Below the pieces are notes generated by a model, which did not search any database, was not told where the DNA came from, and saw only the letters and a list, made by a program, of their open reading frames with translations. Shown here in pieces: positions 1,132 to 10,543 of a stretch of 10,543 bases of DNA. Location: UHGV virus genome UHGV-0097031. One strand, written 5' to 3'. The position numbers and the translations under genes are program-made. Position 1 is the first letter of the stretch; each line of letters opens with the position of its first letter. The stretch is from a virus.

Positions 1132-1150
1132 TGTTAGATGAATGGAATTA

Positions 1151-1164
1151 ATTTTCTAATATAA
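1151..1164 (+). promoter_or_regulatory. Candidate repressor operator (ATTTTCTAATATAA) upstream of the packaging operon; a weaker inverted half-site lies at 1132-1142
   Basis: Member of a recurring TTTCTAA[C/T]A motif family also seen at 5563-5580, 5644-5658 (minus) and 6972-6987, all in intergenic positions before operons. From memory, the CTAATA core resembles the P1 C1 operator consensus ATTGCTCTAATAAATTT. Confidence 0.3.
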
Positions 1165-1239
1165 CCAACTTTTTGCCAGTCTATACAGAAATAACATTCT
1201 CATTATCATCCCCTCGGTCATTTCCTGCCTGGGGGATTA

Positions 1240-1632
1240 ATGGAGCATATCAGCAGCGCAGAAATTGCGGATATCATGATTAGGGCTGACTGCTATCTGA
1301 CAGTCACCGAAATCACCACTCTAGCTAAAGAAAAATATCCTCACCTTCATGTTTCACGAGTAAGTGTAACCAACATCATTCGGCATTTTGTGCGGTCAAG
1401 CCGAGCTATTTGTGAGCTTGATGATCGTGTTTACCCACGGAAATACTGGTTGCATGGCCTGAACGGATATCAGTTCAAGGTGCGCGGGCGCACGCCTGAA
1501 TACGGTAGCTTACTGGTTAAAAACTGTAGCAGGAAATCAGTCGAACAGGCGCGAAAAGAGCAACGAGAGCTGGTGGACATGGCGAATAAGCTGTGGAATG
1601 CCGCCGTTAAAAAGCGTGGTGTTGCTTTATGA
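1240..1632 (+). CDS. Hypothetical protein; positional candidate for a late-gene regulator (Lpa-like position upstream of pacA)
   Basis: 130-aa ORF; GGGGGA (1231-1236) just upstream of ATG 1240; its stop overlaps the downstream start (ATGA at 1629-1632). In P1 the gene before pacA is lpa (from memory); no sequence-level confirmation. Confidence 0.5.
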   Translation: MEHISSAEIADIMIRADCYLTVTEITTLAKEKYPHLHVSRVSVTNIIRHFVRSSRAICELDDRVYPRKYWLHGLNGYQFKVRGRTPEYGSLLVKNCSRKSVEQARKEQRELVDMANKLWNAAVKKRGVAL

Positions 1633-2993
1633 GTCTGGTTAATTGGGAGGAGCACCGCGCCCGCTTTATAGCGTTGCGTGAAGAAAAAGGGATCACTGTA
1701 AAGGAATACTGTGAGGAGCATGGCCTTAGCTTCAATACAGCCAGAAAGCATCTCAATATGAAAAAAAATGAGGTGCGGTCGCAGGTAAAGACAACAAAAA
1801 AAAGCACCAAATCACCTGAAAAAAAACGGGCGGGAAGAGCAACAAAAAAGCTGGAAGAGGGTGCAGAAAAAACAAAATTTACAGAAATTGACAATTCGCA
1901 GGGTGCAGGTTCTTTCCGAAGTATGCCAAGAAAGAAAACTTCGGATCATGAAAGTAATGCCAATAATAACAATGAGATAAAAGAATCTGTCAGGAGATCA
2001 TTGCGCGAAAAAATGGCGAAAATGATCCCCGAAGAAGATAAAAGCGCCCCAAAAATTGAGGGATCTTCAGCAATGATCCCTGGCGGTGCTGTGCAGCGTG
2101 CCACATTGCCCACTACGAATGTGGCTCGCGATATGATGAAGAACGGCGCAGAAGAACACCTGCGGTTAGCAATTCAAATGGCGCAAGAGCGCGCACTTCA
2201 GTATCAAAGCATTGTTGATCAGGAGGCCGAACGTCTACAGGCGGAAATAGACGCCTTGGGCGATAAAGAGCCAGAAGGAATGCACCCTGGGCAGCGCCTT
2301 CTCGGTCTAATCAGTGACGCGGCCTACTACATGAATGATTTTATCAGTAGGTTGGCAGCTATATATCAGTCCGAACAAAAGCTGCGACAGGGGGATGAAA
2401 AGCTTCGTCAGAGCGCTCGCCAGCAAGCATTCAAAGAGGCTGAGGCCAGAGAAAAACTCGAATTAGCACGCCTACAGGCCGAACAGCGTGGCAAAGAGAT
2501 TGAATATCGCATTGGCGCTGACGCACGCGCAGCCAGAGTTATCGCCGCCGCTATACGTATGCGTGAGCGCGAGGAACTGGATGATATCGGTGTTGCTGAA
2601 TACATCGAGCGCCAGGGGGTCAGCGTCCCGGCTATCCTCGCGGCGCGCGCGGCGAAAGCTATCACTCTTCTCGAACCACCTGTTTCTGACGTCAATGATG
2701 TTGATGATGAACAGCTGGACAAAGAGGCAAGGGAGTTTGCAACGCTTCAGGCTAACCATCCGCAATGGCTGGCAGAGCGCCGGGCGGATGTGGCAACCAT
2801 TGTTGAAGAATTGGGGTGCGGAGATTACGACCGCAATGGCGAGCGTAAAGCTGGAGAATTCGAGGCCAACGACGAAGAGCTGGATATTGACCCTTCGGCA
2901 ACGGCTGAAATTTACGGTGATTATGATGCATCTGATGCAGGGTATGACGCCGGAGATGATGATATCGCGATAGAACCGCCGGAGGATGATTAA
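1629..2993 (+). CDS. pacA: Terminase small subunit, PacA-like
   Basis: 454-aa ORF directly before and overlapping the large terminase gene (TAATG at 2991-2995). N-terminus (WEEHRARFIALREEKGITVKEYCEEHGLSFNTARKHL) looks like the HTH of small terminase subunits; Lys-rich linker, coiled-coil-like middle and strongly acidic C-terminal tail. Confidence 0.65.
   Translation: MSLVNWEEHRARFIALREEKGITVKEYCEEHGLSFNTARKHLNMKKNEVRSQVKTTKKSTKSPEKKRAGRATKKLEEGAEKTKFTEIDNSQGAGSFRSMPRKKTSDHESNANNNNEIKESVRRSLREKMAKMIPEEDKSAPKIEGSSAMIPGGAVQRATLPTTNVARDMMKNGAEEHLRLAIQMAQERALQYQSIVDQEAERLQAEIDALGDKEPEGMHPGQRLLGLISDAAYYMNDFISRLAAIYQSEQKLRQGDEKLRQSARQQAFKEAEAREKLELARLQAEQRGKEIEYRIGADARAARVIAAAIRMREREELDDIGVAEYIERQGVSVPAILAARAAKAITLLEPPVSDVNDVDDEQLDKEAREFATLQANHPQWLAERRADVATIVEELGCGDYDRNGERKAGEFEANDEELDIDPSATAEIYGDYDASDAGYDAGDDDIAIEPPEDD
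1943..2079. other. Candidate pac (packaging initiation) site: cluster of GATC-containing hexamers inside pacA
   Basis: Five GATC hexamers in 137 bp: GGATCA (1943-1948) and AGATCA (1995-2000) on the left, TGATCC (2023-2028), GGATCT (2061-2066) and TGATCC (2074-2079) on the right, arranged roughly as mirror images; AATGATCCC occurs twice (2021-2029, 2072-2080). P1 pac lies inside pacA and is built from Dam-methylatable TGATCA/G hexamers flanking the cut site (from memory). Confidence 0.3.
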
Positions 2994-4480
2994 TGGCTGG
3001 AGGGCGCAAGATTAAATGCGTCACCAGCGATCCACGCTGGCGCGATATGGTAATCAAATACCGCTACAACTTTACCCAGGCTGTTGTCGATATTTTTGGG
3101 ATGTTCCCCTCCCACCAGCAGCAGCAGATCATTCAGTCCGTGCAGGAAACGGGGAGTAGGACGACCGTCACGTCCGGACACGGAACGGGGAAGTCGTCCC
3201 TTACCGCGATGTTGCTGTTGATTTTCATGATCCTGTTCCCCGATGCCCGTGTCATCATTGTTGCTAACAAGATAGGCCAGGTAAAAACAGGCGTATTCAA
3301 ATACGTTAAACAGTATTGGGCGAATGTAGTTAAGCGTCATGGGTGGTTGCAGACCTATTTTGTCCTCTCTGACACCATGTTTTATGAGCGCTCCCGTAAG
3401 GGGATTTGGGAAGTTCTCTGCAAAGGTTATCGACTCGGCAACGAAGAAGCGCTGGCGGGTGAACACGCGGCACATTTGCTTCTAATTCTGGATGAAGCAT
3501 CTGGTATATCTGATAAGGCGATCGGCGTAATGACCGGTGCTCTTACTGAAGAAGATAACCGGATGTTGATGCTATCCCAGCCAACAAGGCCAAGTGGTTA
3601 TTTCTACGATTCGCACCATTCTCAAGCAAAAACCCCAGACAACCCGAAAGGGATCTGGACAGCAATTGTTCTTAACTCGGAAGAATCACCGTTCGTCACA
3701 CCACAATTCATCAAGCAGAAGCTTCTGGAATATGGCGGGCGCGATTCTATTGAGTACATGGTCAAGGTGCTTGGTCAGTTCCCACGAGAAATTAACGGCT
3801 ATTTGCTTGGTCGTGATGAATGCGATCGCGCTGCTCGCCGCAAGGTGTTGTTGGAGAAAAACTGGGGATGGGTGGCAACGGCTGACGTTGGTAATGGGCG
3901 AGATAAGTCGGTCCTCAACATCTGCAAGGTATCTGGTCACAGGGATAAGCGGCGCGTTGTTAACTTTAAGGTAATGGAGATGCCTGGCACTATGGACCCA
4001 TTGGCCTTTGCTGACTTCATATATAACGAATGTACGCCGGAAAAATACCCGAATATAACAATCGCGGTTGATGCTGATGGTTTTGGTTCTGATACGTGTG
4101 CGCAGTTGGTGCGTCGTGGTGCGAACCCGGTACGTATTCGGTGGGGAAAACCCATGTTTGCGAACAAAGACAGGGAGCGATTTGTTAATCAGCGTGCCTA
4201 CGCAAATATTATGGCGCGAGATGCCATAAAGTCAGGGCGTATGCGGATAGACAGTGACCCTAAAACGGCAGAGCAAGCGTCAAAAATCCCCTTTTTACTG
4301 AATGAAGAAGGGAAAATGGCGATGATGCGCAAAGAGCACATGCGGCAAAAGCTAAACATCAAATCGCCTGACCGATGGGATACCTACTGCTTCACTATGC
4401 TGGTGGACTATGTGCCTGCTAATGAAGATATTGGTGCCGAAATGGCAACTTTCCGAGATCAGGTTCTGGTGGATATATAA
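2993..4480 (+). CDS. pacB: Terminase large subunit, PacB-like (ATPase plus nuclease)
   Basis: 495-aa ORF; GGAGGA (2981-2986) 6 nt before ATG. P-loop TSGHGTGKSS, Walker B LLLILDEASGI, Asp-rich C-terminal half (e.g. VDADGFGSD) consistent with the terminase nuclease domain; size and position match P1 PacB (from memory). Confidence 0.85.
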   Translation: MAGGRKIKCVTSDPRWRDMVIKYRYNFTQAVVDIFGMFPSHQQQQIIQSVQETGSRTTVTSGHGTGKSSLTAMLLLIFMILFPDARVIIVANKIGQVKTGVFKYVKQYWANVVKRHGWLQTYFVLSDTMFYERSRKGIWEVLCKGYRLGNEEALAGEHAAHLLLILDEASGISDKAIGVMTGALTEEDNRMLMLSQPTRPSGYFYDSHHSQAKTPDNPKGIWTAIVLNSEESPFVTPQFIKQKLLEYGGRDSIEYMVKVLGQFPREINGYLLGRDECDRAARRKVLLEKNWGWVATADVGNGRDKSVLNICKVSGHRDKRRVVNFKVMEMPGTMDPLAFADFIYNECTPEKYPNITIAVDADGFGSDTCAQLVRRGANPVRIRWGKPMFANKDRERFVNQRAYANIMARDAIKSGRMRIDSDPKTAEQASKIPFLLNEEGKMAMMRKEHMRQKLNIKSPDRWDTYCFTMLVDYVPANEDIGAEMATFRDQVLVDI

Positions 4481-4481
4481 A

Positions 4482-4498
4482 GCCCCGCGATGCGGGGC
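4482..4498. terminator. Bidirectional intrinsic terminator between convergent pacB and the 4508-5545 gene
   Basis: Perfect hairpin GCCCCGC-GAT-GCGGGGC starting 2 nt after the pacB stop (4478-4480) and 9 nt before the minus-strand gene's stop (4508-4510); the minus strand has a T-rich run (TTTATATAT) after the stem, the plus strand only a weak one. Confidence 0.6.
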
Positions 4499-4507
4499 CG
4501 GTTGTGA

Positions 4508-5545
4508 TTACCAGAGCTTCGCGGCGTACTGCGTTTGGGGGAATGTGTATCCGTAACGTTCTTCGATTGCTTTGCCGTATTTTTTACGAGCTTCATTCAG
4601 TTTTATGCCGGTCAGGTCGTCTCCAGAGGCCATCATTACGTCTAACAATTCCAGATCCATTTTATCCAGCCTTGCCATTGCTTCACGTGATGTACGTATC
4701 TTACGCTCAATGATATGGCGAATAGCCGGATCGGCATCCTCCAGCATCTTAGCGGATTTCTGCTTAAGGCTTTCATTGCGAATATCGATGTTCCTTAAGA
4801 TGTACGACTTCGCAACGTAGCTTGGCTGGTGTTTTTCCAGGTCACGAACACGATATAAGTTAAAATCGCCGAGAAGGCTGCAAGGTACCGATTCGACGCC
4901 AGAATAAATTGTAATGCTCCGGCGCTCACCAACATTATTGACAACGGGGATCGTTGTCTTCGGTAGTCTTGCGAAAACCAATGCGCCATGTGCGCCAACT
5001 CTAAAGCGAGAAAGGGCATTGCTGCCTTCGATGTTTGTTGTCAGCACAACATCTGTATATGCCTCTTTACGCGCCCGGTAGATCTCGCCTTCAGGCTCAG
5101 CTTCAAAGAAGCGCTGTTCTTCTTCAAGAGCACCTACGATTTGAGAAAAAACCCTATTTTTCAGGCTTTTCTTTATGATTTTGTCGTATTTTTTGAGCAA
5201 TTGTTCACGTGTAAATGTACGTGTTGTTGTAGCGCTTTGCACAACAACATGCGTGCTTTGATTGGTGTCCTCAATGATGAATGGGATCGGAGAATATACA
5301 GACTCAACAATGTTCGACGCTTTGCCGTCGGCATCGCGGCACATGTCAACGAAGGCTTTCCATTCAGCAAGACATTTTTCAGCTTCTTCTAATATGTTTT
5401 GGTCATGCGTTAATGCAACATGGCGGAATTCCTCGCCAGCATAACTGGTATCATGGAAAACAGAGTTTGCGACCACCAGCTCTTTCCACCGTTCAGCGGT
5501 TTGCAGGAACCGTTTGTACTCTTTCTCGATCGACTTCTTACTCAT
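4508..5545 (-). CDS. Hypothetical 345-aa protein in the immunity-region position (between pacB and lox-cre); candidate immunity repressor or accessory gene
   Basis: Longest ORF in this interval; AGGA 5 nt upstream of its ATG (minus strand); own AT-rich upstream region with paired operator-like inverted repeats; convergent with pacB and divergent from cre, as in the P1 immC region. I could not recognise any conserved domain by eye. Confidence 0.7.
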   Translation of the reverse strand: MSKKSIEKEYKRFLQTAERWKELVVANSVFHDTSYAGEEFRHVALTHDQNILEEAEKCLAEWKAFVDMCRDADGKASNIVESVYSPIPFIIEDTNQSTHVVVQSATTTRTFTREQLLKKYDKIIKKSLKNRVFSQIVGALEEEQRFFEAEPEGEIYRARKEAYTDVVLTTNIEGSNALSRFRVGAHGALVFARLPKTTIPVVNNVGERRSITIYSGVESVPCSLLGDFNLYRVRDLEKHQPSYVAKSYILRNIDIRNESLKQKSAKMLEDADPAIRHIIERKIRTSREAMARLDKMDLELLDVMMASGDDLTGIKLNEARKKYGKAIEERYGYTFPQTQYAAKLW

Positions 5546-5562
5546 TATTCCTACTCGATTTA

Positions 5563-5662
5563 GTTTTCTAACATAAAATTACTATGACAAATTTATGTCG
5601 AATAACAGAGTGAGTAAAGGATCGAACTGTGATTTTTTGTCATCAATTTTAGAAAACCAACT
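5563..5662. repeat. Pair of ~28-30 bp imperfect inverted repeats (candidate operators) in the promoter region of the 4508-5545 gene
   Basis: Left arm (plus, 5563-5591) GTTTTCTAACATAAAATTACTATGACAAA; right arm read on the minus strand (5636-5658) GGTTTTCTAAAATTGATGACAAA. Blocks GTTTTCTAA, AAAATT and ATGACAAA are identical, with two small indels; the arms flank a ~44-bp centre. Confidence 0.45.
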
Positions 5663-5754
5663 GTATAAACCACGCTTCGCAAATTAAAGACCATGAAGGC
5701 AACGTGTTACTGGTCAGAATCAATCTGTGATGGATTAAAAAAAATCGCCATTTT

Positions 5755-5788
5755 ATAACTTTAAATAATTGGCATTATTTAAAGTTAG
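5755..5788. other. lox-like recombination site (13-bp inverted arms, 8-bp spacer)
   Basis: ATAACTTTAAATA - ATTGGCAT - TATTTAAAGTTAG; the arms are inverted repeats of each other at 12 of 13 positions, and the outer ATAACTT is identical to the outer 7 bp of the loxP arms (loxP: ATAACTTCGTATA). Lies 152 bp upstream of the Cre-family gene. Confidence 0.65.
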
Positions 5789-5796
5789 GCTATAAT
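5769..5796 (+). promoter_or_regulatory. Candidate sigma70 promoter reading toward cre, overlapping the lox spacer and right arm
   Basis: -35 TTGGCA (5769-5774), 16-bp spacer, -10 TATAAT (5791-5796); a TGATCA Dam-type hexamer at 5807-5812 lies just downstream. Confidence 0.4.
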
Positions 5797-5939
5797 TATG
5801 GGTAGATGATCAGTATTGACATCACTGAAAATACGTGCCTCGAATCAAAGGCTTGAATCTTGAAAATTAACTTATAGCTACCCTGTCATTTTTATATTTT
5901 TCGCGTAGCGTCATCTGTATATAGAGGTTAAATAGTTTC

Positions 5940-6968
5940 ATGAGTGAATTAATTATCTCTGGCAGCTCCGGTGGTTTTCTGCGCAACATTGGCAAAGAGT
6001 ACCAGGAGGCCGCAGAAAACTTTATGCGGTTCATGAATGACCAGGGGGCTTACGCGCCGAATACTTTGCGCGATCTCCGGTTAGTGTTTCACTCCTGGGC
6101 GAGATGGTGTCACGCTCGCCAGCTCGCCTGGTTCCCGATCTCACCAGAGATGGCCCGCGAGTATTTTCTTCAGCTGCATGATGCTGATCTGGCTTCGACC
6201 ACCATTGATAAGCACTACGCCATGCTTAACATGCTGCTTTCGCATTGTGGCCTTCCGCCACTTTCGGATGATAAAAGTGTTTCTCTGGCTATGCGGCGCA
6301 TCCGGCGTGAAGCGGCAACTGAAAAAGGCGAACGAACAGGCCAGGCTATACCGCTGCGGTGGGACGATCTGAAACTGCTCGACGTCCTGTTGTCCAGGTC
6401 AGAACGGCTGGTGGACCTGCGCAACCGGGCTTTTCTCTTTGTTGCATACAATACGCTGATGCGTATGTCGGAAATCTCGCGTATTCGTGTAGGAGATCTG
6501 GATCAAACAGGTGACACTGTCACGCTACATATTTCACACACGAAGACAATAACGACCGCCGCCGGGCTTGATAAGGTGCTTTCCCGTCGCACTACCGCTG
6601 TGCTGAATGACTGGCTGGATGTTTCCGGGCTTCGCGAACATCCTGACGCAGTGCTGTTCCCGCCGATACACCGTAGCAATAAGGCCAGGATCACGACAAC
6701 GCCCCTTACTGCACCTGCAATGGAGAAAATATTCAGCGACGCCTGGGTGTTGCTGAATAAAAGAGATGCTACGCCAAACAAAGGAAGATACCGGACGTGG
6801 ACCGGGCATAGTGCACGCGTCGGGGCCGCTATTGATATGGCTGAAAAGCAGGTGTCTATGGTGGAGATCATGCAGGAAGGAACCTGGAAGAAACCGGAAA
6901 CACTTATGCGGTATCTTCGCCGTGGCGGCGTGTCTGTGGGGGCTAATAGCCGCCTGATGGATTCGTAA
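5940..6968 (+). CDS. cre: Cre-family tyrosine site-specific recombinase
   Basis: 342-aa ORF that aligns by eye along its whole length with P1 Cre (343 aa): SWARWC / SWAAWC, WFP, LNML, SVSLAMRRIRRE / AVSLVMRRIRKE, AYNTLMRMSEISRIRV / AYNTLLRIAEIARIRV, HTKT / RTKT, WTGHSARVGAAIDMA / WSGHSARVGAARDMA, EIMQEGTW / EIMQAGGW, MRYLR / MNYIR. All catalytic positions (Arg, Lys, His-x-x-Arg, Trp, Tyr) are conserved. Confidence 0.9.
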   Translation: MSELIISGSSGGFLRNIGKEYQEAAENFMRFMNDQGAYAPNTLRDLRLVFHSWARWCHARQLAWFPISPEMAREYFLQLHDADLASTTIDKHYAMLNMLLSHCGLPPLSDDKSVSLAMRRIRREAATEKGERTGQAIPLRWDDLKLLDVLLSRSERLVDLRNRAFLFVAYNTLMRMSEISRIRVGDLDQTGDTVTLHISHTKTITTAAGLDKVLSRRTTAVLNDWLDVSGLREHPDAVLFPPIHRSNKARITTTPLTAPAMEKIFSDAWVLLNKRDATPNKGRYRTWTGHSARVGAAIDMAEKQVSMVEIMQEGTWKKPETLMRYLRRGGVSVGANSRLMDS

Positions 6969-6971
6969 ATT

Positions 6972-6987
6972 AAATTTCTAACACATC
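6972..6987 (+). promoter_or_regulatory. Candidate operator (AAATTTCTAACACATC) between cre and the downstream accessory operon
   Basis: Same TTTCTAACA core as the motifs at 1151-1164 and 5563-5580; followed by a short inverted TTAGA (6991-6995); sits 4 nt after the cre stop and ~55 nt before the TTG start at 7042. Confidence 0.3.
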
Positions 6988-7041
6988 TTTTTAGATTAAC
7001 GCCTTTGCTGTAAAGTACCCTCGCCTATTTAGGAGGGTGCT

Positions 7042-7386
7042 TTGCAGAGTCAAATCACGGAATCAAGACGCTTCAAGGTGGATGGTTACACCGTAACCTT
7101 CGCCGCTGGTGTTAAGAACAGTCATGCTGTCGTTGTGTTCGGCATCATGACCGGGCTTGAGGCCGTCCCTGTGTTTACCCTCGAAAAAAACTGGCGAAAT
7201 CTGGAGGAAGCAGAAAGCTACGTCCGGAAAGTAACCATCATTGCCGCCGAAAAACTCCTGGCCCACTATCAGGAAAATTATCGCACTATGGTCGAGAAGA
7301 TTAATCTCGCTTTCACTCGCCCCACTACCGGCTTTATTGCACCGGATACTAATGCCGGTCGATATCCTGCAAGGGGGCGTCGGTGA
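7042..7386 (+). CDS. Hypothetical protein (TTG start)
   Basis: 114-aa ORF starting at TTG 7042, preceded by a strong AGGAGG (7031-7036) at 5-nt spacing; the first in-frame ATG would remove ~35 residues. No recognisable motifs. Confidence 0.5.
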   Translation: MQSQITESRRFKVDGYTVTFAAGVKNSHAVVVFGIMTGLEAVPVFTLEKNWRNLEEAESYVRKVTIIAAEKLLAHYQENYRTMVEKINLAFTRPTTGFIAPDTNAGRYPARGRR

Positions 7387-7859
7387 AAACTTATTACCCA
7401 TCTCTGAATTGTTACCCGTCTTCCTATCCAGAATTATCCGGGAAGCTGTTAGCTCTATTAGCTAAAGCACCTACGGAATGGTTTAAGCCAGTCGTTATCA
7501 ATCCACACTTCCTGGGTTACGGATCTGTTCGCACTCGTAACGAACTCAAAAACCTACTGGCGCATGGATTCATTCGACACCGTGCCGGGAAAGGCTATCA
7601 GTTAGCGATTGCGCCAGAAGAGGCCGTGCGGCTATTCGCATATCGTGACAGCCAGACAAAAACTCGGGTAATAGCTCAAATACTTCATAACGGCAGCACC
7701 TATGCCCGCCAGTTTGGCGGCGACACGTCGCAGTTCTTGCGGGCGGTGCGATCGCTGGAGGAGCAAGGAGTTATTGAAAGTTCCTGTCTTCCTGTTCCTA
7801 CCGTTCCACATATCAAACGTCGGGTTTACACCTTCACGCAGAGAGCTAAAAAACAATGA
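7383..7859 (+). CDS. Hypothetical protein, possibly winged-helix DNA-binding (GTG start)
   Basis: 158-aa ORF; GTG start overlaps the upstream stop (GTGA, 7383-7386) with AAGGGGG 5 nt upstream. The segment LRAVRSLEEQGVIES...KRRVYTFTQRA resembles the recognition-helix/wing pattern of winged-helix regulators (weak, by eye). Confidence 0.5.
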   Translation: MKTYYPSLNCYPSSYPELSGKLLALLAKAPTEWFKPVVINPHFLGYGSVRTRNELKNLLAHGFIRHRAGKGYQLAIAPEEAVRLFAYRDSQTKTRVIAQILHNGSTYARQFGGDTSQFLRAVRSLEEQGVIESSCLPVPTVPHIKRRVYTFTQRAKKQ

Positions 7860-8350
7860 TTTACGTAAAAGTGAAACGCCTACATCCGGCAGCAAAACTT
7901 CCAGCTTATGCCACCTCCGGATCGGCGGCGATGGATTTTGAGGCTGTTGAAATAAAACCATGCGTCGATAGCAATGGTGCAATTTCCTCAAGCTGGTGGG
8001 TGTATACCGGACTGGCTATGGAGATCCCGCCCGGCTGGTGTCTGAAACTCTATCCGCGATCAGGATTGGGCTGCAAAAAACATACTCGCCTGGCTAACTG
8101 CGTAGGAATTATCGACTCCGATTATCGCGGCGAAATCATGGCAAAACTGATTACTGATCCCGGCGGGGAAGGCGTTTGTCTCAAGCCTGGAATGGCTGTC
8201 ATGCAAGGAATTTTTGAGCGTGTTGAACAAGTCTCACTAGTCGAGGTTGAGGAACTCAACGAAACGGAGCGTGGTGCTGGTGGCTTTGGTAGCACATCGG
8301 AAGGCCACTTTGAAATTAAGCGTTCACCGCTTCAGTACGAAAAGTTATAA
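7856..8350 (+). CDS. dut: dUTP diphosphatase (trimeric dUTPase family)
   Basis: 164-aa ORF with the conserved dUTPase motifs in order: YATSGSAAMDF (motif I, variant of AGxDL), PRSGLG (II), GIIDSDYRGEI (III), AVMQGIF (IV), ERGAGGFGSTS (V). Alignable by eye with E. coli Dut; ~16-aa C-terminal extension. Start overlaps upstream stop (ATGA, 7856-7859). Confidence 0.9.
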   Translation: MIYVKVKRLHPAAKLPAYATSGSAAMDFEAVEIKPCVDSNGAISSSWWVYTGLAMEIPPGWCLKLYPRSGLGCKKHTRLANCVGIIDSDYRGEIMAKLITDPGGEGVCLKPGMAVMQGIFERVEQVSLVEVEELNETERGAGGFGSTSEGHFEIKRSPLQYEKL

Positions 8351-8364
8351 GCAGAGAAAAGACT

Positions 8365-9042
8365 ATGAATAACAAGGCAACGAAAGAGCTTTTTAAGCTC
8401 CTTCCCAAATACAAAGCTCACAAAAACGTTAGTGCATCGAAAATCAAAAATGTTGTTATTTTCGGAGTAACTGATACCCCACTTTGGGGCAGCATCGAAC
8501 TCGTTGAACCTAAAGGGGCAACAGTTTGTGTTGACGCAATGTTTTTACAAAAACACCGACCAAAAACTGGCGGGTATCTGATCGTTTATGAAAACGGTTA
8601 TCTGTTCTATGCCCCGGAGAAACCATTTGAGGAACGCTATGGCCTGGTTAACGACGCCTCCAAAAATGGAACCACGGTCATCATTACGGATGACAACGGC
8701 GCGATGATTAATCTTACCGGGAGCGTAACTATTTCTGCTGGTGGCATCACCACCCAGCAAGAAGAAATCGACCTTGAAGCAGCCGACTTTTCTGACGCGC
8801 TGATGTGGCTGAAGGATGGCAAGAAAGTTGCTCGACGCGGGTGGAACGGCGAAAACCAATTCTGCTGGCTGGTTCCTGAAGGACAGTACCCGGCACGAAT
8901 GGAAGCCATTAAGGGATATTTTCCCGGCGACCTCGTTCCGTATGGTGCTTATTTCGCCTTAAAAAATGCACAAGGTGTAGTTGTTCCGTGGGTGCCTTCA
9001 GTTGGCGACCTGCTGGCCTGTGACTGGTTTGTTGTGGAGTGA
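8365..9042 (+). CDS. Two-part protein: unknown N-terminal region (~140 aa) fused to a C-terminal DUF2829 (Tad2-family) domain
   Basis: 225-aa ORF. C-terminal ~85 aa (DFSDALMWLKDGKKVARRGWNGENQFCWLVPEG...PYGAYFALKNAQGVVVPWVPSVGDLLACDWFVVE) matches the DUF2829 pattern I recall (F-x-x-A-L-x-x-L-K-x-G-K-K-V-x-R-x-G-W-N-G ... P-W-x-x-S-x-x-D-L-L-A-x-D-W). N-terminal part unrecognised. Confidence 0.7.
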   Translation: MNNKATKELFKLLPKYKAHKNVSASKIKNVVIFGVTDTPLWGSIELVEPKGATVCVDAMFLQKHRPKTGGYLIVYENGYLFYAPEKPFEERYGLVNDASKNGTTVIITDDNGAMINLTGSVTISAGGITTQQEEIDLEAADFSDALMWLKDGKKVARRGWNGENQFCWLVPEGQYPARMEAIKGYFPGDLVPYGAYFALKNAQGVVVPWVPSVGDLLACDWFVVE

Positions 9043-9048
9043 TTTGAC

Positions 9049-9816
9049 ATGGAAAGCACTAAAACAATTCAATACCGCTTGCGTAATGGCCTGCTGGTGG
9101 CTGTTAACGCCGACATGTCACTGCCGTTTGACACGATTGAACGCACTATCATGACGTATCTCGGCTTTAATGAAGAGCTGAATGAAGAGCATGGCGTAGC
9201 TATATGGAGTGATGCAGACAGCGGCGTTCGTCGTTACATCACCGCCAGGGGCAAAGACTACTCTCTGGAAGAACTGTTTGCCCTTGCGCAGTCTTTCGAA
9301 TGTGTAGCATTAGACCTGTTTAATGATCCTGCTATAGCGCAACGACTTATACGCGAGCTTGGGCTATCCGTTACACCAATTATCTTTAAAAATGGCAGCC
9401 TGACTGGCACATGGCGCGTAGAACGCATCTCAAACTACCTTCCATATAACCGACAGTTAAATGGAGTAATCTCCGGCGTTAATCAGCCCGTAGCGTGTGA
9501 AAATGTAAACCTAGTTGTCGCTGTTTTGGCAACCGCATGTCGTGTTATCGGTTTGGCTAAACAGGCATTTATTCATTTCCCAAATGGTGCAGAAGGTAGC
9601 GCAGAGATTATCGCGTGTGATTTCGAATTTACCTGGATGCTACGCGAATATCTGGACCAAACAGTATTCCGTGCCGAAGAACTGGATATGTATATCACGT
9701 CAACGATTCCAGACGATGTGCGAGCTGAAGCAATCGCTACAGCCAGGGCGAAATGCCGTGCGGCGATTGCAGAACAGGCCAAAGAAGAAGTTAAGGAAGT
9801 GGCAGATGGCGACTAA
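9049..9816 (+). CDS. Hypothetical protein, translationally coupled to the downstream terminase-like paralog
   Basis: 255-aa ORF; its last 11 nt overlap the start of the next gene (ATG 9806, stop 9814-9816). No recognisable motifs; Ala-rich helical C-terminus. Confidence 0.6.
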   Translation: MESTKTIQYRLRNGLLVAVNADMSLPFDTIERTIMTYLGFNEELNEEHGVAIWSDADSGVRRYITARGKDYSLEELFALAQSFECVALDLFNDPAIAQRLIRELGLSVTPIIFKNGSLTGTWRVERISNYLPYNRQLNGVISGVNQPVACENVNLVVAVLATACRVIGLAKQAFIHFPNGAEGSAEIIACDFEFTWMLREYLDQTVFRAEELDMYITSTIPDDVRAEAIATARAKCRAAIAEQAKEEVKEVADGD

Positions 9817-10543
9817 GAGCAATATTTATAAAGATCCGCGCTGGCTGTCGCTGGTGGAGAAATATAAAGACAATTGGGTACTGGCAGCAAAAGAATTGTT
9901 TGATATTGATTTAAGCCACCAGCAACAACAAATTGTTGAAGCTATACAGCCCAATAATGCAAAAGCTACTGTCACCACTCCGTATGGGATCGGACGACCG
10001 CAAGTGCTTGCTGTTATTAGTACCCTTTATACGATTATGTATCCTGATTCCCGGACAGTAATTGTTTATCCAAAATCAAATGTTTGCAAAAGAGGAATTG
10101 TTGCATATGTGTGGCAATGTTGGGAGGCATTGCTGAAAAAACAACCTTTTATCATTGAGTATTTTAAGGTCGGTGATAGCGGTCTGATGTTCAATGAATT
10201 TTGGGGAATGTGCTTTTGTAACTACCGCCTTAACTATGAAGATAGCATTGCAGGTCACTACGCCGACCATCTTTTATTCATTATTGTGGATTCCGCACAT
10301 ATCAGCGATCGGGCATACAGCATTGTGTGGGCAAGCATGACTAGTGGTGATTCACGCATATTGCTCACTTCAATTCCGTCACCAGAGGAAATAGGCTTTT
10401 TTTATGATTCACATCATGGACGTGCTTTAGCTGAAGATAATCCGAGTGGTGTATATAAAGCCATTAAGCTGAGTGCGGAGGATTCACCATTTATTACCCA
10501 AGAATATCTTGATCATTTTGCCGAAAGGTATGGCGGGCGAAAT
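9806..10543 (+). CDS. Terminase large subunit (PacB) paralog with degenerate Walker A and B motifs; 3' end beyond window
   Basis: Partial ORF (246 codons, runs off the window end). Colinear with PacB 2993-4480: DPRW, SHQQQQI, YPDSRTVIV / FPDARVIIV, HLLFIIVDSAHISD / HLLLILDEASGISD, FYDSHH, DNP, SAEDSPFIT / SEESPFVT, ERYGGR / EYGGR. The P-loop position reads TTPYGIGRPQ instead of TSGHGTGKSS (Lys to Arg, Ser to Pro), and Walker B is VDSA instead of LDEAS (Glu lost). Confidence 0.75.
   Translation, partial: MATKSNIYKDPRWLSLVEKYKDNWVLAAKELFDIDLSHQQQQIVEAIQPNNAKATVTTPYGIGRPQVLAVISTLYTIMYPDSRTVIVYPKSNVCKRGIVAYVWQCWEALLKKQPFIIEYFKVGDSGLMFNEFWGMCFCNYRLNYEDSIAGHYADHLLFIIVDSAHISDRAYSIVWASMTSGDSRILLTSIPSPEEIGFFYDSHHGRALAEDNPSGVYKAIKLSAEDSPFITQEYLDHFAERYGGRN

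Follow-up and report, generated by a model that had tools for sequence, protein, structure and literature searches.

The 10,543-nt stretch of viral DNA analysed here (UHGV virus genome UHGV-0097031; the entire stretch is called the window in the following) represents the immC region of a D6-like phage-plasmid of the P1 family and carries a dispersed motif, the copies of which are most probably operators of a heteroimmune repressor of the C1 family. A preliminary description of the window, made from its letters alone, had proposed that words of the form TTTCTAA(C/T)A mark operon starts and constitute the regulon of a C1-type repressor. The enrichment and the positions of the motif confirm it as a genuine dispersed family preceding transcription units, and the assignment to a C1-type regulon is supported, with the corrections given below, by the enrichment, the conservation in related elements, the positional match to P1 and the homology of the encoded C1. 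The system is the expected prophage control of the P1 family with a new recognition sequence, and does not represent a new kind of biology.

As judged from megablast comparisons, the window shares 97% identity with the D6 immC record (AY753669) and 96.6% with the D6 genome (MF356679); its closest plasmid match is CP043746 (97.8% identity), and at least 99 plasmids of PLSDB cover at least 80% of it. The gene map, which was drawn from the list of open reading frames and the D6 annotations and, for the accessory operon, also from plasmid annotations and Pfam, is given in Table 1 together with all sites.

Enrichment and extent of the motif

All six strings named in the preliminary description were found exactly where it had placed them. 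The exact core TTTCTAAYA occurs three times in the window (1153, 5565 and 6975), each time on the plus strand and in intergenic DNA, compared with an expectation of 0.17 copies for the whole window and of 0.036 copies for an intergenic-matched null (779 bp, 61% AT); three copies were obtained in none of 200 dinucleotide shuffles in the former case and in none of 5000 shuffles in the latter. The motif is thus far more common than AT content predicts, the explanation that had been named in advance as fatal to its significance. An alignment of the intergenic copies from D6 shows that the conserved unit is not the 9-letter word originally proposed, but an asymmetric motif of about 22 bp, AAATTAGTTTTCTAACAYAAAT, with the core TTTCTAAY. 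In a 22-bp scoring matrix built from 13 intergenic D6 sites, the three strong sites of the window reach 21-28 bits, a range from which all sequences simulated by a second-order Markov model stayed away, none of them reaching 20 bits.

The complete D6 genome (91,159 bp, 10.2% intergenic) contains 16 copies of the exact core, 13 of which are intergenic, and 17 positions that score 12 bits or more with the matrix, as opposed to 0.67 in genomes simulated in the same way. Among them are positions outside the training set, namely 64129 (+), the partner of 64111 (-), 80704 (-), the partner of 80722 (+), and 22462 (-), 5' of repL. A prior-free ranking of all 8-mers in D6 intergenic DNA, performed to avoid the circularity of the matrix, placed TTCTAACA, TTTCTAAC and TCTAACAC at the top, with z values of 15-19 (17-19 for the first two). 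The D6 sites precede the hrdC-dcm-dmt, ref, pmgS, repL, icd-antirepressor and pdcB units.

Conservation in related elements

A tblastn search with the window C1 retrieved 149 plasmids with identities between 100% and about 25%, from which loci of graded relatedness were compared: L009 (90% C1 identity), L010 (80%), L011 (68%), L012 from Enterobacter (43%), and L013 from Leclercia and L014 from Citrobacter (28-29%). The TTTCTAA core is present 5' of lpa in L009, L010 and L012; the fetched L011 locus lacks lpa, its pac region being interrupted by insertion sequences. Directly after dre and twice 5' of c1, the core is present in all loci from L009 to L012, while the flanks around the conserved cores have diverged, almost completely so in L012. 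The motif is thus found at equivalent positions of related elements; its absence from them had been named in advance as the second observation that would speak against its relevance. The entire Enterobacter plasmid pJBIWA008_2 (88 kb), which provided an independent test, shows the same pattern, with TTTTCTAA and TTTCTAAC as the most enriched words after Chi. Its copies lie at orthologous places, namely between MCP and orf, at rdgC/hrdC, between mat and simB, on both sides of ref, at pdcB, after dre, twice before c1, before lpa and around pmgS.

That the copies are chance words of AT-rich DNA, as might be argued from the 61% AT of the intergenic regions and from the behaviour of one-mismatch copies discussed below, is hardly credible, since this reading is refuted by the enrichment against every null tried and by the conservation in diverged relatives.

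The more distant loci L013 and L014 contain intergenic TTCTAAGG sites (WTTCTAAGG) at equivalent positions after the recombinase gene, 5' of c1 and in other gaps, amounting to about eight intergenic copies in the 15-kb L014 locus. The TCTAA core is consequently common to three clades, which differ in the next base: P1 has T, D6 has C or T, and the Citrobacter type has G. Such a pattern fits a repressor family in which the specificity would have drifted alongside the protein; it does not prove C1 to be the reader, because the rest of the genomes diverges in parallel.

The gap between c1 and the recombinase gene and the region upstream of pacA in L013 and L014 also harbor clusters of GTGATCAC and other GATC-containing repeats near the TTCTAAGG-type sites, with six copies of AGTGATCAC in L013; these may reflect a Dam-related control.

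Relation to P1 operators and to the C1 protein

The C1 operators of P1, which are experimentally defined, and the P1 late promoters were extracted from the annotation of RefSeq entry NC_005856. The C1 operators yield the consensus ATTGCTCTAATAAATTT, the late promoters AAGTGACT-N5-TANNAT. The same operator consensus is given in the literature, together with 22 dispersed operators and the control of RepL and Lpa by C1 (PMC8546580). The P1 operator core quoted in the preliminary description was correct. In our own alignment, the D6-type and P1 consensus sequences share TCTAA and match at 10 of 17 positions. The D6-type word TTTCTAAYA occurs 16 times in D6 and not at all in P1, whereas for the P1-type word TGC(T/A)CTAAT there are 18 copies in P1, a single one in D6 and none in the window. 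The suggestion of a related but distinct specificity is borne out by the shared core and by the forms excluding each other between the two genomes, apart from that single copy. Compared with the P1 operator, the D6 form has TT instead of GC before the core and C instead of T after it, and its conservation reaches about 5 bp further upstream (AAATTAG). Paired sites are mostly divergent in the D6 type, with 23 bp between the cores, but convergent in P1, with about 13 bp.

The likeness to the immC systems of P1 and P7 extends to the genetic layout. In both cases a homologous repressor gene lies between pacB and a lox/rox-recombinase module, many single asymmetric and mostly intergenic sites are scattered over a plasmid-prophage of about 90 kb, some sites form overlapping inverted pairs (Oc1ab and Obanab in P1), and the same units are targeted, i.e., c1, lpa, the dmt operon, ref, pmgR/S, repL and icd-ant (Table 1). 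On the basis of its sequence, the element is accordingly placed in the P1 C1 family, but not in the P1/P7 immunity type, since its sites deviate from ATTGCTCTAATAAATTT. Lambdoid CI/Cro systems resemble the one proposed here in that repressor sites overlap promoters and the repressor gene is autoregulated. However, their operators have dyad symmetry, are grouped at two loci next to the repressor gene and are recognized by helix-turn-helix dimers, whereas the D6-type sites are asymmetric and spread genome-wide, and C1 has neither a recognizable helix-turn-helix nor a solved relative. An assignment of the sites as lambdoid CI-type operators was rejected for these differences.

The C1 protein of the window is 21% identical to P1 C1 over 240 aa (BLASTP, E 2e-8), and the profile of the D6-clade C1 proteins aligns with P1 C1 over about 235 residues in hhalign (residues 6-240 against 7-244; probability 98.3%, E 1.5e-14). 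By these alignments it is a true member of the P1 C1 family, and its gene occupies the same place in the gene order as in P1, between pacB and rox/dre. The AlphaFold model and the hhalign result indicate a helical C-terminal extension of about 100 aa past the region aligned with P1; the model is of moderate quality (predicted local distance difference test score 79, predicted template modelling score 0.46, from a 9-sequence alignment). C1 belongs to PHROG 1678, to which no function is assigned, and yielded no sequence match in the PDB, no Pfam family in the local copy and no recognizable helix-turn-helix.

These data bear on the possibility that another phage-encoded DNA-binding protein, such as an antirepressor-associated or winged-helix regulator, occupies the motif and controls the same early genes. 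D6-type genomes do encode further putative regulators, the clade-wise change of the motif would suit any clade-specific factor, and C1 itself is a presumed binder. We nevertheless consider this possibility unlikely, because the sites resemble the C1 operator defined experimentally in P1 in their TCTAA core, their asymmetry and their dispersed arrangement, because they are found at orthologous loci including two copies before c1, and because no protein here other than C1 has demonstrated homology to the protein binding the P1 operators.

The site before lpa

The core of the site at 1145-1166 is located 79-87 nt before the ATG of lpa, compared with 71-87 nt for Olpa of P1, and is the positional equivalent of that operator. 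The block ATTAATTTTCTAA within it is invariant in D6, L010 and L012 even though the flanks diverge. The preliminary description had placed this site before the packaging operon, but the gene that directly follows is lpa, coding for the activator of late promoters, a gene that C1 also controls in P1, via Olpa. Successive stop and start codons of lpa, pacA and pacB overlap, as seen in the ATGA at the lpa-pacA junction (1629-1632). Because of these overlaps and of the missing late-promoter box before pacA, the pac genes are probably expressed together with lpa and controlled via lpa only. This differs from P1, where pacA has its own late promoter (LPpac).

The question of late promoters is of further relevance because the P1 promoters activated by Lpa (a -22 box AAGTGACT plus a -10 element) are likewise a dispersed short motif before operons in the same phage family, and because some copies of the D6-type motif lie close to morphogenetic genes (pmgS, the gap between g23 and orf52). 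It is very improbable that the motif itself is a late-promoter element recognized by Lpa: it precedes early and regulatory genes such as lpa, c1, ref, hrdC-dmt and repL rather than the main late operons, and the P1 late box is unrelated in sequence, serves a different gene set and, if searched at about 4-5 bp before a -10 element, is absent from the window and present three times in D6, in no case at the start of a late operon. Instead, a different word, AAATCACA, stands before the late operons of D6. In gene orientation, it is located 43-63 nt 5' of the start codons of ddrB, prt, R, pmgB, g23 and g7, about 100 nt 5' of darB and about 150 nt 5' of mat (MF356679 positions 19215, 25234, 27740, 38128, 45504, 54137, 67406 and 72113). 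This word is a candidate for the D6-type Lpa late-promoter box in place of AAGTGACT, and the existence of such a separate candidate argues that the TTTCTAAC motif is not the late promoter. An exact copy of AAATCACA was not found ahead of pacA. A further copy at 5628-5635 (-) was considered as a late promoter into c1 and dismissed, as it is not conserved in L009-L011.

The site before lpa also allows an interpretation as a promoter, TTAGAT-17 bp-TAATAT, which would extend over 1134-1162 and put the operator core on the -10 hexamer. In general terms, the motif might mainly represent a shared promoter core, recognized by the RNA polymerase of the host through a -10-like TAACAT or TAATAT that follows a T-tract, and no repressor site, as its copies lie 9-90 nt 5' of start codons, mostly in gene orientation, and contain -10-like hexamers. 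This is quite unlikely in our view: most copies read TAACAC and lack the near-invariant final T of a -10 hexamer, the conservation covers about 22 bp and hence extends well past a hexamer, the c1-proximal copy faces away from c1, and the flank differs between clades that share the same hosts, P1 having T, D6 having C and the Citrobacter type having GG. In addition, a consensus promoter scan called no promoter over the sites, including the hexamer pair before lpa. A role as operator and an overlap with promoters are not exclusive, as operators of P1 extend over -35 or -10 hexamers; Olpa, for instance, overlaps the -35 of Plpa, OrepL the -10 of PkilA, and Oc1ab overlaps Pc1.

Of the two weaker copies reported previously, both of which were found in place, the one at 1132-1142 is ambiguous. 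It may be a real partner of the lpa site, because TGTTAGA (1132-1138) and TCTAATA (1155-1161) are divergent and 23 bp apart, the same spacing as in the divergent pairs of D6 (64116/64139 and 80704/80722, corresponding to the paired matrix hits listed above); it is not conserved in L012, the most distant relative checked at the lpa locus. The copy inside coding sequence (5387-5396) was rejected as an operator, as it scores below 5 bits, is plain coding sequence and is lost in relatives through synonymous or conservative changes, being replaced by CTAGAAG, CTTGAAAG or CTGGACG.

The leader of lpa (about 1209-1238) can form a hairpin that pairs the G-run of the Shine-Dalgarno sequence (CCCCTCGG...CTGGGGG). 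A similar hairpin, CCCTC...GGAGGG, is found in the leader of orf2 (about 7011-7045). Both are conserved in relatives, and the orf2 hairpin shows a few compensatory changes among them.

The sites before c1 and after dre

The proximal of the two sites before c1 ends 12 nt 5' of the start codon, in the leader immediately 5' of the ribosome-binding site, and its core TTTTATGTTAGAAAAC is near-invariant in five relatives, with one substitution in L012. The core of the distal site reads TTTTCTAA in the window and, at the corresponding position, in D6, L009, L011 and L012, and ATTTTCTAAT in L010; this site adjoins a -35-like ATGACA/TTGACA element. Between the two sites lies an invariant TTTAC (TTTACT in the D6 clade, TTTACG in L012), with ATGACA/TTGACA 19 bp upstream of it. 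The sites are separated by 83-84 bp in the D6 clade and by 74 bp in L012, i.e., one helical turn less. With two spacing classes the evidence is weak; the distances are compatible with cooperative binding or looping of the kind described for the autoregulation of c1 in P1.

In relatives, a (T)TTCTAAC word is fused to the left arm of rox, giving (T)TTCTAACTTTAAATA at about 6803 in L009, 6806 in L010 and 6791 in L011. The word itself reads TTTCTAAC in L009 and L010 and CTTCTAAC in L011; the window (5751-5767) and D6 have TTTTATAACTTTAAATA at this place. An operator overlapping the recombination site is possible in these relatives.

The site after dre overlaps the dre stop codon and is followed, at a distance of 54 nt, by the accessory operon (7042..10543, plus strand), whose genes overlap or are tightly packed. 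Its core is kept in D6 and in L009-L012, and a variant, TTCTAAGGC, is found at the same place in the distant L013 and L014.

Proposed regulon and its standing

By analogy with P1, the 345-aa C1 protein of a lysogen would bind these sites and block transcription at three places in the window. Bound at the lpa promoter, it would prevent synthesis of the late activator Lpa and, with it, of the terminase products of the overlapping pacA and pacB. At its own gene, where the two sites flank the likely c1 promoter and leader, it would be autoregulatory, possibly by forming a DNA loop. The third place lies directly behind the dre stop codon, where C1 would keep the accessory operon silent (orf2, orf3, dut, the Tad2-like gene and the PacB paralogue) and, in addition, prevent read-through from dre. 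The scattered D6-type sites would then represent a single regulon that opens once C1 is inactivated. Both the geometry of promoter occlusion and the looping are carried over from P1 in this scheme.

Several observations weigh against this interpretation. The assignment of C1 as the binder in D6-type elements is indirect, and the covariation of motif and C1 clade is confounded with the divergence of whole genomes, since a search for a mosaic element in which the two are uncoupled gave none. The one-mismatch family of the motif is not enriched in the window (6 copies versus 5.1 expected), which means that loose copies carry no statistical weight alone and need other evidence, and the D6 matrix was trained on 13 of the matches that were later scored with it. 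The distal c1 site reaches no more than 7.2 bits, the best candidate for a c1 promoter requires a 19-bp spacer, and the promoter scan mentioned above not only left the sites uncalled, but returned promoter counts not above those of shuffles. Several D6 sites are located just 9-11 nt from a start codon, which would need an unusual promoter arrangement. Finally, the Coi and Lxc partners of P1 C1 are apparently missing: the window contains no coi-sized open reading frame between c1 and rox (the largest encodes 33 aa), and lxc has been reported as undetected in a D6-like plasmid (PMC6799933). The apparent absence of both indicates that the D6-type circuit is not a copy of that of P1.

A wider generalization is put forward tentatively, as we regard it as somewhat more doubtful than probable. 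It states that a TCTAA core may be what the C1-family repressors of all P1-like phage-plasmids recognize in common and that they may derive their immunity specificity mainly from the adjacent bases (GC..T-AAA in P1, TT..C-AYA in the D6 clade, ..GG in Citrobacter/Leclercia), by means of a fold without a solved or recognizable DNA-binding relative, and that the circuit of the D6 clade may operate without Coi and Lxc and subject the terminase genes as well as Tad2-like anti-defence genes to direct control by the prophage repressor. Full-text literature searches for the motif or for D6 operators returned nothing relevant, although an earlier description may exist, and neither of the GenBank records of D6 annotates operator features.

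Phage-plasmids of the D6 type are common in E. coli and Salmonella, and the Dre/rox recombination tool derives from D6. Once the operator is known, it opens up the lysogeny regulon, i.e., the genes that are silent in the prophage and first switched on at induction; the predicted regulon includes lpa, the terminase genes, dut and Tad2-like anti-defence genes. The operator sequence also offers a way to sort D6-like elements into immunity groups, and if the reading of a common TCTAA core were true, heteroimmunity groups could be read straight from genome sequences. C1 is an unusual, structurally uncharacterized repressor of asymmetric sites, so P1 and D6 present themselves as a natural pair of related repressor/operator specificities for studying how such sites are read, and the D6 pair might serve synthetic biology as an orthogonal repressor/operator part. 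These operator findings would not overturn the current understanding, and the prediction of the C1 operators is precise and easily tested.

Neighboring genes and further observations

Table 1. Coordinates of genes and sites in the window and of D6 sites corresponding to P1 operators (D6 positions are marked as such).
Feature	Position	Strand	Sequence	P1 counterpart	Details
orf6	164-739
orf5	739-1131
Possible weak partner half-site	1132-1142	minus	TTCATCTAACA		string of preliminary description; overlaps orf5 end, <5 bits
Strong operator-like site	1145-1166	+	GAATTAATTTTCTAATATAACC	Olpa	5' of lpa, 21.1 bits
String of preliminary description	1151-1164		ATTTTCTAATATAA
lpa	1240-1632	+			open reading frame, D6 annotation, Pfam PF25716
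pacA	1629-2993	+			open reading frame, D6 annotation
pacB	2993-4480	+			open reading frame, D6 annotation
c1	4508-5545	minus			345 aa, phage P1 C1 repressor homologue
String of preliminary description	5387-5396		TTCTAATATG		inside coding sequence
Strong operator-like site, c1-proximal	5557-5578	+	GATTTAGTTTTCTAACATAAAA	Oc1a-e (with distal site)	28.1 bits; opposite to c1 direction
String of preliminary description	5563-5576		GTTTTCTAACATAA
Operator-like site, c1-distal	5642-5663	minus	CAGTTGGTTTTCTAAAATTGAT	Oc1a-e (with proximal site)	7.2 bits
String of preliminary description	5644-5658	minus	GGTTTTCTAAAATTG
rox site	5756-5787
dre	5940-6968
Strong operator-like site after dre	6967-6988	+	AAATTAAATTTCTAACACATCT		28.1 bits
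String of preliminary description	6972-6987		AAATTTCTAACACATC
orf2	7042-7386	+
orf3	7383-7859	+
dut	7856-8350	+
DUF2829/Tad2-like gene	8365-9042	+
255-aa open reading frame	9049-9816	+
PacB paralogue open reading frame	9806-10543	+			continues past window end
D6 site	D6 64111/64129			Odmt	before hrdC-dcm-dmt
D6 site	D6 76630			Oref
D6 sites	D6 10315, 9066, 8910			OpmgRa/b, OpmgT
D6 site	D6 22462			OrepL
D6 site	D6 21260			Oc4	before icd-antirepressor

The Lpa protein of the window matches Pfam family PF25716 (E 1e-56) and is 31% identical to Lpa of P1. The last gene visible in the accessory operon (9806-10543, plus strand) codes for a paralogue of the large terminase subunit PacB of the same window (37% identity, E 2e-54). 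This protein is probably not an ATPase, because it has PYGIGRP in place of the Walker A motif GHGTGKS. A Tad2-like domain (Thoeris anti-defence 2, PF11195) is present in two of the encoded proteins, those of 164-739 (E 1e-9) and 8365-9042 (E 2e-22), the latter gene being located in the accessory operon that is putatively controlled by C1. No Rfam family was matched in the window.

A sigma-70 promoter close to the consensus (TTGGCA-16 bp-TATAAT, matching at 11 of 12 positions) is located at 5769-5796 (+) and points to dre; it spans the spacer and the right arm of rox. Direct repeats of TTGAGGGCAA(A/T)T at D6 45711-45787 and 46651-46918 flank a repA-like gene and are probably replication iterons.

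The window is also rich in Chi sites (GCTGGTGG), a feature for which P1 is known. It contains 12 of them compared with 0.32 expected, 9 of the 12 on the plus strand, at positions including 1002, 1569, 4399, 6407, 7992, 8276, 8737, 9093 and 9850, and the Enterobacter relative carries 69 versus 7 expected.

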